NCBI RefSeq assembly: GCF_013167455.1
Contig: NZ_CP038328.1
Direction: 5' to 3' (one strand)
Source: Escherichia coli O157:H7
GTDB taxonomy: Bacteria; Pseudomonadota; Gammaproteobacteria; Enterobacterales; Enterobacteriaceae
Length of the DNA: 64,000 nt
Positions 34,287-40,200 of this stretch are shown in pieces. The position numbers were made by a program. How positions within the stretch are numbered: the stretch's first letter is position 1; each line of letters opens with the position of its first letter.

Positions 34287-37200
34287 TTATCGTTATGATC
34301 TACAAAGACCACCAGCATAACAAATCCGTGGTCGGTGGCCAAAAAAGCAGATTTTGCTTATTAAAACTGCATATTGATTGAAGTTTGAATAAACGCGCGA
34401 TTTTTTAAAAAAGTTTGTTGACCTCAGGTCATGATTTCCCTAAATTAGCGCCCGTTCCAGCAAGACAGGAACGACAATTTGGTGAGGTGTCCGAGTGGCT
34501 GAAGGAGCACGCCTGGAAAGTGTGTATACGGCAACGTATCGGGGGTTCGAATCCCCCCCTCACCGCCAGATTATAAGCGCATGTTATTGTTTAACATGCG
34601 CTTTTTTATTTTCCCTTCCAGACAGTATGCCATCGGGTATGCCATCTGAAACCGGTTTATATGCCCCGCGATCATATCTTATCGGACAATTTCCGATCTT
34701 TGAGCATACTGGCAAAGCTATACTGCCAGCATATCAGGATAGTGTTTTGCGATAATATCATTCAGTCTGTCAACCAGTTCTGGTTTTCTGAACGTGATAT
34801 GCGCGGAGCCCTTCTTAAAGTATCTGATGCTGAACATCTCATCTTCATAGCTCTCTTTACCCTGAACAGACTGAATGTGATCATCCAGACGAAGGGTGAT
34901 GTTTCCCCGGTTGTCGGGGATTGGTTTACCGCTGAACAGGTGCAACATTCTTTCCAGATCGGCGAGTCGGTCAGCCTGTTGTCCGGTGATAAGATGAAAT
35001 CCCCACCGGTCCCATCTCACCAGATTGTTGACGATAATTTTACTGCCAAATTTACAGGGGCAATTGGTTTTGTAATTCCAGTTCAGCCCTCTGAAGACGT
35101 TGATCACCCCTCGCTCAAACACCTCATCCTTATTCTGGTGCAGTTGTTCAAATGTGCTCAGAATGTTCGCTTCGCTGATTTCCGGAAAATTATCGTACTC
35201 CAGTGACCGGTACCATGTATCACGGGCCTGCGTATCCATTAATGACAGCATCCCGGAACGTTGCATCAGGTCACGCCAGATTTCGCGATCAAGATTCCGG
35301 GTAATGGCTTTCATTGCTGTTTCGGGTTTCTCCATCAGCCAGCAGCCGCAGCGAAAATCCTGTTTCATGGCCCAGTCCGGGGCAGTTTTACCTCCGATGC
35401 TTTCCGTCAGCACCGAGATTTCAGCCAGTTGTCGGATAAGTGTGTCGATTTGCAACAGTGTACTCTTTCGTACAGCCAGAATGTGGCGAATGCTGGTTGA
35501 GCAGATAACGTCCGTATGCCCGTTGACCACTTCCGGACGGGAGATTGTGATATCTGACATAATCGATATTCCTTTTTGCAGATAAATGAAAACGCTAGCC
35601 CTGTGCAGGCTGGCGTCAGAGGAATGAAGTCTGGTGAGTGAGCTTCACCGGTTCTGGTGCAGAAGCTGCAGATGACGCAGGGTACGGACATCCTCCCGGG
35701 CCTGTTCGATACAGGGCAACAGTGCTGCTGAATCCGTTTTATCCTCATCGTTGTCAAAGATAATTCCCGATCCGCAGTCGATATTGTCCTGCAGCCACGC
35801 AATCAGAATATCCAGCGCTGTTTCCGTGGTTAATGATTTCATGTTGTTCCTGGTTACCAGTCGAAAGTGGGTAAACCCGGCAGGCATTCAGCGCTGGCAT
35901 CCAGATGAATGAGACTGACGCCATAACGCCGGATGAGTGTGACGACCAGACGACGGAACGTTTTTGACAGACCCAGGCGTTTAAGCCGCAGAACCGGGTA
36001 CGACCACGCATCGGTACGCAACAGATAGCCGTTACCGGTAAAATGAATCCATTCTGATTCACCGAAGTCACTGGTCTGGTGTGACAGCGAGTACAGCCAG
36101 GCGTTGTCCGTTTCCGTGATATGTGCGGTACTGCAGCGTATGCCGGTAAGGGTAGCAAATGGTGGCGTGCATTCTGCTGAGGTCTGGTCAGATTCATCAA
36201 CAACACGAAGGGAGTAGCCGTTATCGCAGACCATGTTAATCAGTTCAGCGAGCTCAATACCATCGACGTCAACGACAATGCGCCCCATGTTCAGTGCCTG
36301 TACGTTAACGCTGTCGGCTTCCAGTGTCAGGGCCAGTTTCATCATTTCGCCTCCGGATACTTACCCAGGGTAATGTTATTTACCGTTCTGTAATTGTCGC
36401 GGGTCATCAGGCCGGTCGCCCGGCGAGCCCGGAGGATATCAATACTGTTTATTAACTGAGAGCGGGGACAGGTGCTGAATCCCGGCTGGTCGGTACGCAC
36501 CAGCGCGTATTTTTCCACGAGAAAATTAACTGCATCACACAGTGAAATGCCTGCCTCAATATGCTGCTCAATCACACGTTCATCGGCAAACGGTGTGTCA
36601 TTCAGTGTGAGGCCATAATGCTGGTCCAGCAGTCGGATGAGCAGTGTCTGCCAGATGGTGACGGGAGACGGGCAGCGAGATACCTCCCGTACATGTGTGT
36701 CGGATAATGTTTTCATCTTAAGTTCTCTGTAACTGGTAGTGCTAAAGGTGAGAGCTTCGGGGTTATGAGGTGGTTGCGGGTGCTGGTGTCGGATAAACAG
36801 CCAGATAAACGTAACCACAGGAGCCGAGGGTGTCGGCTTCGCAGGTCAGCCCTTTTGCATTCAGCGTGACGGTATGCTGATATCGGGGATTCAGTTCACC
36901 GCTGGTGAGCATGAGTTCCAGTTGTTTCATCAGCAGCGGAAAGGCCTGGTCCAGATGGTATGCATCTGCGTCGCTGAAGCGGCCTCTGATACCGGCGCGG
37001 TCGGCAAGGTAATGCAGGCGGTTACCCTCTTGCACCAGACGAGCGCCAAAACAGGGCCTCACTGTGCAGGGAAGCCCCCACCAGGGGCGGTCGTGATTGT
37101 CATCGGGATGAGTTATCCCGGAGAGTTTGTCTGACACGATAAAATCCTCTCTGAAAAGTGGTTAAGAATGGTTTAACGATGACAGGTCAGCCGGCGCGCT

Positions 37201-40200
37201 GACCGGTTTCGGTGAAGATGTATGCATTGATGAGAATGGCCTCATCCACAGCGGCGTCTGAGGTCATCTGGTCGTACTCGTTTCCCGGGTGACGGAACAT
37301 CAGTTCAGGGTGACACTCATCAGCCGGACATACGGGCCAAAACTGTCCTTACGGCGTTCTGCAAACACGGCAAGAACGCCGGGAATATCCTGCACTTCAC
37401 GACCAGTATACGCTTCAGCACTGCCGTGCCAGCGATACTTACCGGTACAGAACGGAAAAAGACGGGATGCAGGATGCTGTTGGTGAATACGCATGGCTTC
37501 ACCACGGGTGATGATTCTCATGATGTGATACCTCTGAAGACAGAAGATAAAAGTGAAAACAGGTGTGATGTGGTTGTGACGGGTTAAAGCAGACCATGTT
37601 CGGCAAAGGAGAAAACCTGGTTGCCACCGACTATCAGATGGTCCGGCACCCGGATATCCACCAGGCCCAGTGCCTGTACCAGACGTTCGGTGATAAGCCG
37701 GTCTGCCTTACTGGGTGTGACTTCACCGGACGGGTGATTGTGCGCCAGCACCACGGCAGCGGCATTGTGGTACAGGGCGCGTTTAATCACTTCCCGGGGA
37801 TGAACTTCCGTACGGTTGATGGTGCCGGTGAAGAGGGTTTCACCGGCAATCAGCTGATTCTGGTTGTTCAGATACAGCACCCGGAACTCTTCCCGCTCCA
37901 GTCCCGCCATGTTCAGAATCAGCCATTCCCGTGCCGCACGGGTGGAGGTGAAGGCCACGCCGGGTTCATGAAGATGGCGGTCCAGGGTTTGCAGGGCCCG
38001 CAGAATGAGACTGCGCTCGCCGGGCGTCATCTCTCCGGGCAGAAAGGAAAGCTGCTGCATTGTCCCTGCCTCCATTCAGTCAATGATGCGCATAATGGCG
38101 CTGCATTCCGGATGCTGCAGGGCGTAATCCCGCAGCCGGTAATAGTGGACCGTCATGGCATAACACTCCGTACGACAGGCATGATGACTGTACGTCATCA
38201 GACAGGCAGCAATACCGGCGGCTTCCGGGCTCATTTCAGCGCGGTTGCCGTTCATGGCATTGAACAGTACCCATGTTTCGTCATCATCGTCATCCGGTTC
38301 GGGTGCCATAAATGCCCCGCCGTTGTTCAGGGTGTACAGATTCCAGATACCACCGCAGTAGTCTTCGCAAAGACGGTCCATCCAGCCGAAGACACGGGGC
38401 TCCAGGGTCACCCACTGTGGAATGAGGCCAAAATGCTGCGGCCAGAAGCTGATGCGCTGTTCATCAGGGACGGGAGTGGCAACCAGCTGAGGTGGGTTAT
38501 TCCCTGATGCAGTGGTTACGGAAACAGAAGGTGTGGTGGAATTATGCGAAACGGTTGTCATGAGGTTATTCCTTATAAAAAGTAAATGAATGGAAGAAGC
38601 CCCGGGGCAGGAACAGATGTGAGTCAGGACTGCACTTTCAGTGAAACGGCATCAGCGCATGCTCTCCAGCAGCGTTTCTGCCATCACCCACAATGCGCGA
38701 TTGAGCTTAATGTCGGTATCAATGCTGTGAATGGCCCGGGTATGGATACGTTTTCCTTTTGCACTGCGACCGGAAATCCCGCCTTTCAGCATATTCTCCT
38801 GGATGGTCTGATAAGCACTCCACAGGTCCTTACCGTAATCCTCCCGGCGTCGTGGTGTCAGAATGTCGGCGGTGGTGACGGGCTGATGTTCGTCACCATA
38901 ACGGTAAGTCAGTGCCGCCTGTGCCAGCGCCTGGCGTGCCGGTGGCGGCAGGACCAGCGACTGCATGGCATCACGCTTCTCCTCTATCCGGTCAAAAACG
39001 CCCACCACCTCGTAAGCCCCTTCAATGACTCTGTCCACCACATTTCCCCGGTGTGGAACACGCAATTCTCCCAGAGACTGACCGCAGACCAGTCCATTGG
39101 TACAAATGGCACGAAAATATCCGGGTAACATCTGGTAGCTGGATGAACCGTCATGGGAGTTGAGCAGAATAATTTCAGGGACATGCTGACCGGTTATCTG
39201 TCCGGCCCGCCGCAGACGCAGCATGTGTTTTGTGTATTCCCGGCGGCTCTGGTCGCGCACGCGGGTCTGGCAGGCAAAGAACGGCTGAAAGCCTTCCTGC
39301 TGCAGATTTTCCAGGACGGTGATAGTGGGAATGTACGCATAGTGTTCACTGCGAGAGGTATGTCGGTTTTCCCCAAAAATACTCGGTACATGGCGCATCA
39401 GTTCTTCGTGTGTCAGCGGACGATCACGACGTATCTGGTTCGCATAACCAAAACGACTGGCTAATCTCATGATTTGCTCCTTATGAATGATTAAGCGATA
39501 TAAATGAAAAAGCCGCGTCTCCCGGAGAAGACGCGGCCTGATGGGTGAAATGAATGAGGTTTATTGTCTGAGAAGCCCTTCACTGGCGAACCACGTATTA
39601 AGCTGTATTCCGGCATCGCCAGTGCAACTGACCTTCAGCATTGCGGATAACCCGCCGGAAATATGTTCACTGGTTGTTTTTGTATCTTCCCCCAAAATTA
39701 AATAAATTCATCTTAACCATCACCCAGATAATATATATCTGAAAATATTTTCAATAACACCAGACAGGAAAAACACCACCACAGGCGGTGGCGTTTCTTT
39801 GGGGCGTCTTTATTTAATCCGGGCCATCGCGTTTCTCAGTGCCAAATCTGCCTCTTCCGTTATATCCAGGCTTTTCTGCAATACCGCCTCTGACCGGGTC
39901 AGTGCCTGACGTGCTGCCAGCGGTTTCCGGATATGCTCCATCGCCAGCATCGTGTCTTCATAGCCCTGCTGACGCCAGGCGTCGGTATGTGCCGATGTAA
40001 AACTGAGCAGACCGCCGCTGTTGCCACCATCACCTGCATATTTCAGCCTTTTCCGGGGACGGATCTCAAGGATTGTGGTGTCCGGAAAAGCCTGGCGATC
40101 CCATAAAGAACCGTCACTCAGATGCGTCACAATCACCATATTGCATCCGGCATCGACCAGAGGCGTCACAGGGGTATTTCCCTGCATATTTCGCCATCCT

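Follow-up and report, generated by a model that had tools for sequence, protein, structure and literature searches.

Next to the tRNA gene serX, Escherichia coli O157:H7 carries a block of genes around a CbtA/CbeA-type toxin-antitoxin pair, which raises the question of what this block is and whether it stabilises the island in which it resides. The window, i.e. the complete stretch of DNA analysed, comprises 64,000 nucleotides of contig NZ_CP038328.1 (assembly GCF_013167455.1) and shares 99.986% identity across 41.8 kb with strain 2017C-4109. The initial annotation described an intact pair preceded by antirestriction, RadC-like and DUF987 genes at 36342-38561. Comparison with Pfam and RefSeq confirmed the identity, order, full length and minus-strand orientation of all five genes; their Pfam matches span the complete domains and are far above the curated cut-offs, and the RefSeq labels for identical DNA agree with the assignment. 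The block is the already known and already annotated CbtA/CbeA toxin-antitoxin island module of E. coli, of which the window contains a single copy (no second one was found in the 64,000 nt). In O157:H7, the ~89-kb serX island SpLE1/OI-48 (tellurite-resistance/adherence island), a member of the P4-integrase 'CP4-like' family, ends with this block on its tRNA side. We consider it highly probable (about 0.9) that the block is a conserved, CP4-44-like backbone run of this island, with the functions of its homologues and with one transcription unit separate from the neighbouring dynamin/patatin operon.

Gene content of the module

All features described are located on the minus strand, except for serX. 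The first gene (38076-38561, 161 aa) is of the ArdB/KlcA antirestriction type (PF03230, E 2.5e-37; PHROG anti-restriction protein, E 1e-62). Its product matches the solved structures of CFT073 ArdB (2WJ9, E 3e-98) and KlcA (2KMG, E 1e-19). In vivo, CFT073 ArdB and K-12 YafX/YfjX are active against each of the four type I restriction families (PMC2836571). By analogy, the 2WJ9 match and the activity of these homologues bear out the anti-defence role proposed for the gene, and the protein probably acts indirectly in relieving type I restriction in vivo, as known for close homologues.

The RadC-like JAB/JAMM gene (37584-38060, 158 aa; PF04002, E 8e-45) also matches TIGR00608 above the cut-off. 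An alternative ATG at 38075 yields 163 aa, while the RefSeq start on identical DNA is at 38060. The metal motif HNHPSG-x7-D is invariant in comparison with the K-12 paralogues, i.e. the JAMM motif is intact, and judging from close homologues the protein may be a zinc JAMM protease. The protease evidence for the homologue LfgB is weak by its authors' account, with poor solubility and background proteases not strictly excluded (PMC10846083). The DUF987 gene, an orthologue of yeeT, follows at 37300-37521 (73 aa; PF06174, E 8e-40, full profile); a structure search with its product found no solved relative.

The 162 nt in front of the antitoxin gene, previously regarded as a gap, are not empty. Alignment with the DNA of other copies revealed the 3' remnant (~110 nt) of a gene named DUF8835 in RefSeq, present as a 37-aa ORF at 37187-37300, whose ATG overlaps the DUF987 stop codon by one base (TGATG). 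The gene is intact (645 bp, 214 aa) in other copies, where it separates DUF987 from the antitoxin; in two of them, L007 and L008, it is also followed by the 49-nt spacer that precedes the antitoxin gene in the window (37138-37186, from the sequence). No Pfam match was obtained for the remnant. Its dN/dS is 1.0-1.6, compared to 0.22 between intact DUF8835 genes, both from small counts. K-12 keeps only the 5' ~25 nt in the DNA alignment; DUF8835 was lost independently here and in K-12. The description as intact thus holds for the toxin-antitoxin pair, but not for the module, which lacks this sixth gene.

The CbeA/YeeU-family antitoxin gene (36763-37137, 124 aa; PF06154 CbeA_antitoxin, E 4e-54, profile 1-100/101) has a GTG start that is unchanged in six of six copies, with the ribosome-binding site GAGAGGA located 7 nt before it. 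Its product matches the structures 2INW (E 1e-77) and 2H28 (YeeU, E 1e-73), and the solved YfjZ structures 2EA9/2JN7 are also among its relatives. After a spacer of 46 nt follows the CbtA/YeeV-family toxin gene (36342-36716, 124 aa; PF06755 CbtA_toxin, E 6e-61, profile 1-112/112), which RefSeq names 'TA system toxin CbtA family protein' on identical DNA. A mechanical call of a 158-aa GTG ORF (36342-36818) was rejected because it over-extends the toxin; the real start is the one used by RefSeq for identical DNA, the ATG at 36716.

The toxin keeps F65 and all 57 invariant columns. Of its 15 differences from K-12 CbtA, 13 fall within residues 5-27. The exchange R15C in K-12 CbtA abolishes the interaction with MreB, yet YkfI and YpjF, both with Cys15, still yield lemon-shaped cells (PMC5624674). 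The window toxin has Cys at this position, which is the majority state in the family, R15 of K-12 being the outlier among the eight copies compared. The inactivating substitutions that had been named as the critical check were not found in comparison with CbtA, YkfI, YpjF and the other copies. From what is known for close homologues, the toxin would bind FtsZ via an F65-dependent surface and also MreB, blocking division and elongation, while the antitoxin would counter it through the FtsZ/MreB polymers and not by toxin binding (type IV). The targets of the CbtA family were studied previously (PMC5624674), as were toxicity, neutralisation and apparent co-transcription of the K-12 homologues (PMC5371832).

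Comparison of copies differing by dS 0.1-0.5 yielded dN/dS values of 0-0.48 for the five genes (antirestriction 0.07-0.24, RadC-like 0-0.13, DUF987 0.02-0.20, antitoxin 0.11-0.48, toxin 0.09-0.39), which indicates that all of them are under purifying selection.

Boundaries, transcription and the neighbouring operon

The gene run extends beyond the five genes initially listed and goes on downstream with genes for DUF5983 (35854-36345, 163 aa, YeeW family; PF25638 and PF19419), DUF957 (35645-35842, 65 aa by the RefSeq start; assigned from the RefSeq annotation of identical DNA, no Pfam match) and DUF4942 (34718-35560, 280 aa; PF13708, E 9e-69). The start codon of DUF5983 and the stop codon of the toxin lie within a shared stretch of 4 nt (ATGA), as also annotated in copies L005-L008; this overlap suggests that both genes are translationally coupled. 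DUF4942 is the final island gene before the tRNA-Ser(GGA) gene serX (34481-34568, plus strand; ARAGORN and Rfam). The last 14 nt of serX constitute the attachment-site repeat of the island. In a 99.99%-identical genome, a second copy of this repeat lies ~88.9 kb away, with ycdU on one side and the integrase on the other; the repeat is also described in PMC3064760.

Upstream, Pfam and RefSeq support the proposed location of the module behind the DUF932 and dynamin/patatin genes on one strand. The DUF932 gene (38652-39470, 272 aa, YfjQ/YafZ family; PF06067, E 4e-48) takes the relative position occupied by yfjQ and yafZ in K-12. It is preceded by patatin (39810-40880), YjcZ/RdcB-like (40877-41782) and dynamin (41779-44166) genes. 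Two terminator-like hairpins stand between this operon and the module, one beginning 17 nt past the patatin stop codon (39774-39793) and one in front of DUF932 (39510-39539; 13-bp stem with 8 G-C pairs, T-run). Both form in a DNA fold of 39471-39809, in which no unusual single-strand structure was found beyond these two ordinary hairpins. A scan for sigma-70-like promoters gave fewer sites than expected by chance overall and none upstream of the ArdB gene, so that the operon structure is deduced from gene spacing and from the precedent of the CP4-57 lfgABCDE operon (PMC10846083). From this anatomy, the module genes would form one transcription unit, starting upstream of ArdB or DUF932 and separate from the dynamin/patatin operon.

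The count of paralogues agrees with the expectation of several copies per genome: of 5426 complete E. coli genomes, 4957 contain the module, at 14055 places altogether (median 3 and maximum 15 per genome), with 3-4 matching places in O157:H7 records. The dynamin/patatin operon is present in 2442 genomes (at least 80% coverage), and 2406 of these have the entire 7.8-kb block, toxin through dynamin, in one contiguous piece. The supposed co-inheritance is thus real, but it is one-sided. As the operon occupies 3404 places compared to 14055 for the module, about three quarters of the module copies, including all three in K-12, occur without it. This identifies the module as island backbone and the dynamin/YjcZ-RdcB-like/patatin operon as one optional cargo outside of it.

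Possible roles of the block

The role first proposed is that of an addiction module, in which cells losing the island are killed and the pair, ArdB and the dynamin/patatin operon form one co-inherited stabilisation and anti-defence cassette. That the pair adjoins the attachment site, at the extreme tip of an island able to excise, is in line with this, as are the purifying selection on both genes and the contiguity with the operon. In OI-43 of EDL933, an IS3-family element splits the toxin gene, and the published complete excision of OI-43 (1.8e-3) is about tenfold that of OI-48 (2.0e-4; PMC3064760), a comparison that is strain-averaged and a correlation only. However, OI-48 still excises completely in ~2e-4 of cells. 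Within the K-12 family, each antitoxin neutralises all of the toxins, and the pair lacks autoregulation (PMC5371832); with 3-4 module places in O157:H7, other antitoxins should still be present after one island is lost. Type IV antitoxins exert their effect on the target, and the cited literature reports no differential stability of toxin and antitoxin. The many module copies without the operon and the intervening hairpins also speak against the cassette as such. By analogy with the published cross-neutralisation, and given the measured excision, a stabilising role of the pair appears weakened, and we regard it as doubtful.

Less probable is a function during establishment, with expression on arrival of the island in a new cell and not for long-term maintenance; ArdB would then neutralise restriction, with the protease and DUF proteins targeting host factors and the pair transiently halting division. 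ArdB/KlcA genes typically belong to the early-entry set of conjugative elements (PMC2836571), the block lies at one extreme end of the island, and three antitoxins of the CbeA family (CbeA, YagB and YfjZ) turned up among the proteins that an F-like type IV secretion system translocates, albeit at low frequencies of 1e-7 to 1e-5 (PMC11288057). Yet the serX island has no known oriT, relaxase or direction of transfer in the material considered, plasmids seldom carry the toxin family (66 of 72,556 records) and the upstream region offers just the ordinary hairpins.

There is little in favour of a phage-defence (abortive-infection) or host stress-response system. In K-12, loss of all three toxins lowers oxidative-stress resistance and loss of the antitoxins increases early biofilm formation (PMC5371832), and H2O2 induces the paralogous CP4-57 operon (PMC10846083); these phenotypes are modest and stem from K-12 paralogues, and none of the nine block proteins matches a PADLOC defence model. 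Finally, the least probable reading is that the block is decaying and has no function, left over from an old mobile element, since the losses of DUF8835, the truncated, frameshifted or IS-interrupted DUF5983 genes of several other copies and the disrupted OI-43 toxin contrast with five full-length genes whose dN/dS is well below 1, compared to ~1 or more for the DUF8835 remnant.

Comparison with known relatives

The preferred reading of a CP4-44-like backbone run is illustrated by yeeS-yeeT-cbeA-cbtA-yeeW of K-12 CP4-44, the founding type IV pair and closest relative, with the same order and strand logic. Identities are 99% (YeeS), 97% (YeeT), 88% (CbeA) and 88% (CbtA), and the GTG start of the antitoxin and F65 of the toxin are shared. 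CP4-44 differs in having yeeR in place of ArdB, a yeeS shortened at the 5' end, a truncated yeeW (full length in the window), an antitoxin-toxin spacer of 88 instead of 46 nt, and different toxin residues 5-27 (R15 instead of C15). Its DUF8835 deletion left a 5' stub, that of the window a 3' stub.

The paralogues of CP4-6 (yafX-ykfG-ykfH-yafW-ykfI) and CP4-57 (yfjX-yfjY-ypjJ-yfjZ-ypjF, the lfgABCDE operon) have the identical five-gene order with a DUF932 gene upstream (yafZ and yfjQ, respectively), and the toxin end of CP4-6 abuts the tRNA gene thrW as that of the window abuts serX. Identities to the window are lower, with 58-62% for the toxin (YkfI 58%, YpjF 62%), 61-64% for the antitoxin (YafW/YfjZ), 70-71% for ArdB (YafX/YfjX), 73-82% for RadC (YfjY/LfgB 73%, YkfG 82%) and 59-64% for DUF987. 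Both have shorter toxins and antitoxins, with spacers of 18-37 nt.

ArdB of CFT073 PAI II belongs to the same fold family as the window protein, the match spanning 160 of 161 residues, whereas plasmid KlcA of the same family is far more distant. CFT073 ArdB, YafX and YfjX are active against type I restriction in vivo; the window protein is likened to them by sequence. The serX/serW islands OI-48 and OI-43 of EDL933 and SpLE1 of Sakai contain module DNA 100% identical to that of the window. OI-48/OI-43 and SpLE1 also share the serX junction, the 14-bp repeat and a P4-family integrase at the far end. The serW copy OI-43 carries the IS3-family element inside its toxin gene, whereas the window copy is uninterrupted.

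Gene content of the module

The 2.3-kb block at 36342-38561 of the window carries five genes on the minus strand, and all five hit their respective Pfam families across the entire domain, with scores far exceeding the curated thresholds. The genes are an antirestriction gene of the ArdB/KlcA type (38076-38561; PF03230, E 2.5e-37, 127.4 bits versus a cut-off of 25), a RadC-like JAB gene (37584-38060; PF04002, E 8e-45, 152.1 bits versus 22.1), a DUF987 gene (37300-37521; PF06174, E 8e-40, 135.1 bits, full-length profile 1-65 of 65) and the genes for a CbeA antitoxin (36763-37137; 124 aa; PF06154, E 4e-54, 181.9 bits versus 27) and a CbtA toxin (36342-36716; 124 aa; PF06755, E 6e-61, 203.9 bits versus 25, profile 1-112 of 112). 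The five-gene arrangement reported in the initial annotation is thereby borne out, with every gene at its claimed place. Many E. coli O157:H7 chromosomes contain the block with 100% identity. Over 41.8 kb, the window shares 99.986% identity with strain 2017C-4109, whose RefSeq annotation shows the same five genes with the same boundaries.

The antitoxin gene directly precedes the toxin gene in the same orientation, with a spacer of 46 nt between its stop and the toxin ATG at 36716. A 158-aa GTG ORF that a mechanical ORF list proposes for the toxin, overlapping the antitoxin, was rejected in favour of this ATG. The antitoxin starts with GTG, preceded by GAGAGGA, a start found without variation in six copies, K-12 cbeA among them. 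PDB entries for YeeU/YfjZ match the antitoxin (2H28, E 8.5e-73; 2EA9, E 8.5e-40) and the antirestriction protein matches solved ArdB/KlcA (2WJ9 from CFT073 ArdB, E 2.7e-98; 2KMG, E 9.8e-20); a search for a solved relative of the toxin found none. The H-x-H-x7-S-x2-D metal-binding motif of the RadC-like protein is intact, and its residues H107-N-H109-P-S111, S117 and D120 are invariant in four paralogues. Only one copy each of the toxin and the antitoxin was found in the window, repeats in the block were limited to short matches as expected by chance, and no Rfam RNA family was detected inside 34569-47141. A 303-aa plus-strand ORF antisense to the RadC-like and ArdB genes (37596-38507) matches no family; most probably, it is a shadow ORF arising from the G + C-rich coding strand. 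An 86-aa ORF (36874-37134), also without a family match, was treated in the same way.

The 162 nt between the DUF987 and antitoxin genes are not a plain spacer. In two other module copies (L007 and L008), the same place is occupied by a 645-bp gene (1969-2613 in both) encoding 214 aa and named 'DUF8835' or 'hypothetical' in RefSeq. The window retains just the last ~110 nt of this gene as a 37-aa ORF (37187-37300, minus strand). The ATG of this ORF and the stop of DUF987 have one base in common, and the ORF is followed by the usual 49-nt spacer. The 37-aa ORF was rejected as a real small gene, since it corresponds to the in-frame end of a deleted gene, with a dN/dS of about 1 or more: comparisons with the window remnant yielded 1.0-1.6, as opposed to 0.22 between intact genes, all based on small counts. 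The same deletion junction is present in the diverged copies E166 and RS571. At a coverage of at least 80%, the intact gene was found in 1943 genomes at 2883 places, compared to 14055 module places, so that about one module copy in five has it intact. DUF8835 gave no match in a PDB sequence search, Pfam or NCBIfam; its sole match is an unnamed PHROG. An AlphaFold2 model built from a two-sequence alignment has a mean pLDDT of 41. One RefSeq record labels the protein 'antitoxin of toxin-antitoxin stability system'. The ORF at 50603-51247 of the window has the same length of 214 aa and is unrelated (BLASTP E 13).

The gene run extends downstream of the toxin. The start of a DUF5983 gene (35854-36345, minus strand) overlaps the toxin stop by 4 nt (ATGA, 36342-36345) in the window and in every other copy examined. 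DUF5983 is full length in the window; in other copies, such as K-12 yeeW, L005, L006 and L008, it is often truncated, frameshifted or interrupted by an IS element. Past DUF5983, the run continues with DUF957 (a RefSeq label for a protein without a match in the Pfam copy searched) and DUF4942 as far as the tRNA. A promoter scan of 34400-40000 returned two sites versus 5.8 expected by chance, none of them upstream of ArdB.

Island setting and the dynamin/patatin operon

The module is part of a run of minus-strand genes at 34.5-48.4 kb of the window, which begins directly after a tRNA-Ser(GGA) gene (34481-34568). The tRNA gene is serX, based on its left flank of csg-ycdXYZ-ghrA. The far end of the island falls beyond the window and was located in a 99.99%-identical genome, in which a repeat of the last 14 nt of serX is found ~88.9 kb away, flanked by ycdU and a tyrosine integrase. 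Insertion at the 3' end of serX, the far direct repeat and an integrase inside the far boundary identify a P4-integrase island. It is the published OI-48/SpLE1 tellurite-resistance island, which is flanked by 14-bp repeats (PMC3064760). The module therefore occupies the end of the island next to the tRNA, with the integrase at the other end.

Identity to strain 2017C-4109 ends at 58065 of the window, where an IS3-family element is present in 2017C-4109 only; thus, IS content inside the island differs between the two genomes. In the window, mdtG (16642-17868, plus strand) has an in-frame stop at codon 37 and is a pseudogene according to RefSeq in the near-identical strain. Rfam matches in the chromosomal backbone, all on the plus strand and unrelated to the module, are the ES056 sRNA (28790-28881), the ES036 sRNA (18652-18694) and the PyrC leader (9472-9521).

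The dynamin/patatin operon (39810-44166, minus strand) was considered in the initial annotation to form, with the module, a block that may be inherited together. The operon is followed on the minus strand by two terminator-like hairpins at 39774-39793 and 39510-39539, the latter with a 13-bp stem, and is therefore regarded as a separate unit. A leading-region-type ssDNA promoter or unusual single-strand structure upstream of the DUF932 gene (38652-39470) was rejected, as the z-score of -3.7 is explained by these two ordinary terminator hairpins. At a coverage of at least 80%, the module alone was found in 4344 genomes at 14055 places and the operon alone in 2442 genomes at 3404 places; in 2406 genomes, the 7.8 kb from toxin to dynamin form one contiguous block. 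Co-inheritance hence holds in one direction: the operon almost always adjoins a module copy (2406 versus 2442 genomes), whereas about three quarters of the module copies, including all three in K-12, lack the operon. This indicates that the module is backbone and that the operon is optional cargo, like the neighbouring Ag43/cah.

Taken together, the module is real, correctly identified and ordinary, namely a known, annotated, multi-copy part of the backbone of CP4-like islands, here in a published serX island. RefSeq annotates it, there are experimental studies of its K-12 paralogues, and both the island and its excision have been published. The picture of an intact cassette stands for the full-length toxin-antitoxin pair and is corrected otherwise: one gene has been lost, the run is longer downstream and, as cargo, the dynamin/patatin operon stands apart.

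Integrity and role of the toxin-antitoxin pair

Inactivating substitutions in the toxin were looked for and none was found. The full-length toxin has the conserved residue at each of the 57 columns invariant among the K-12 toxins CbtA, YkfI and YpjF, including F65, substitution of which abolishes FtsZ binding in all three (PMC5624674). Compared to K-12 CbtA there are 15 differences, 13 of which fall in residues 5-27. One of them concerns R15, which is absent from the window toxin (C15 with R14). The R15C substitution abolishes the MreB interaction of K-12 CbtA (PMC5624674), a requirement that is specific to this protein and does not define the family. Of the seven other copies compared, six likewise have C15 with R14, among them the toxic YkfI and YpjF, and the eight-copy alignment shows that Cys15 and the N-terminal sequence of the window toxin represent the majority form, with K-12 CbtA as the outlier. 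YkfI and YpjF, both with Cys15, are toxic and produce lemon-shaped cells, and C15R is without effect in either (PMC5624674). Across copies differing by a dS of 0.2-0.6, dN/dS was 0.09-0.39 for the toxin and 0.11-0.48 for the antitoxin; across module copies, the values were 0.07-0.24 for ArdB, 0-0.13 for RadC and 0.02-0.20 for DUF987. Judged from these comparisons, nothing suggests that the window toxin is dead.

Toxin-antitoxin pairs are usually assumed to stabilise their islands. An addiction module is characterised by an antitoxin that is shorter-lived than the toxin, by death or arrest upon loss of the locus and by rescue through the cognate antitoxin only. In K-12, however, all three antitoxins neutralise all three toxins and autoregulation is absent (PMC5371832). 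O157:H7 records contain 3-4 module-matching places each, our copy figures being matching places per record. In addition, complete excision was reported in ~2e-4 of cells for OI-48 and ~1.8e-3 for OI-43, figures averaged over strains (PMC3064760). A point on the other side comes from EDL933, whose OI-43 copy, adjoining serW and infA, has its toxin split by an IS3-family element (L010 1543-3230, corresponding to NZ_CP008957.1 1140832-1142519), with the antitoxin intact and the module otherwise identical. The island with the split toxin is also the one with the ten-fold higher published excision figure, which is a lead rather than a result because the figure is averaged over strains. The stabilisation assumption is doubtful for the CbtA/CbeA family, given its cross-protecting paralogues. 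The two near-identical islands of EDL933, one with a split toxin and the other presumed intact, provide a ready-made comparison.

A second proposal is that ArdB, JAMM protease, DUF987, (DUF8835), CbeA, CbtA and DUF5983 form a single operon of a mobilisable island that is switched on upon entry into a new cell, with the pair serving establishment instead of addiction. The toxin would then pause division while restriction is disarmed, and a CbeA-family antitoxin could arrive ahead of the DNA. An F-like secretion system was reported to have CbeA, YagB and YfjZ among its substrates (PMC11288057), and on this ground we retain the proposal, although we regard it as improbable. In a smaller variant, the Cys15-type toxin, as the majority form, would inhibit FtsZ only. 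The toxin family is rare on plasmids (66 of 72,556 records), and none of nine block proteins matched a PADLOC defence-system model at E ≤ 1e-3.

Comparison with the K-12 modules

The module genes are in the same order in the three K-12 islands, and the window copy is closest to CP4-44. Identities to CP4-44, CP4-6 and CP4-57 are 99% (YeeS), 82% and 73% for the RadC-like protein, 97% (YeeT), 64% and 59% for DUF987, 88% (CbeA), 61% and 64% for the antitoxin and 88% (CbtA), 58% and 62% for the toxin. ArdB is absent from CP4-44 and shows 70% and 71% identity to its counterparts in CP4-6 and CP4-57.

The functions of the K-12 homologues allow predictions for the window. Toxins of the CbtA family have FtsZ and MreB as independent binding targets and block both division and elongation (PMC5624674), and the window toxin may act likewise. 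CbeA-family antitoxins counter the toxins without binding them (as summarised in PMC5371832), which would also apply to the window antitoxin; in K-12, the toxin is neutralised by none of the three upstream genes (PMC5371832). ArdB of CFT073, CP4-6 (YafX) and CP4-57 (YfjX) counteracts each of the four type I restriction families in vivo and is inactive against EcoKI in vitro (PMC2836571), and the window ArdB would be expected to relieve type I restriction in vivo. YfjY/LfgB, the RadC-like protein of CP4-57, was reported as a JAMM protease with MqsA as its substrate, and the five CP4-57 genes have been described as one operon (PMC10846083). The window protein keeps the metal-binding motif and is a putative JAMM protease.

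The layout at the tRNA end is shared with CP4-6, in which ykfI adjoins thrW. Rfam also detected an IS102 RNA match (77 bits) at 47142-47377 on the minus strand, just downstream of a GTPase gene; part of it covers the start of the long cah ORF (44274-47291) and the rest lies upstream. In CP4-44, the small RNA isrC occupies the equivalent place between yeeP and flu. CP4-44 differs from the window in its DUF8835 deletion, which keeps only the first ~25 nt of the gene, whereas the window keeps a 3' stub. In addition, yeeR is found in place of the ArdB gene in CP4-44 (L002 8780-10755), overlapping a 5'-shortened yeeS, indicating that the CP4-44 copy is a rearranged version of the module present in the window.
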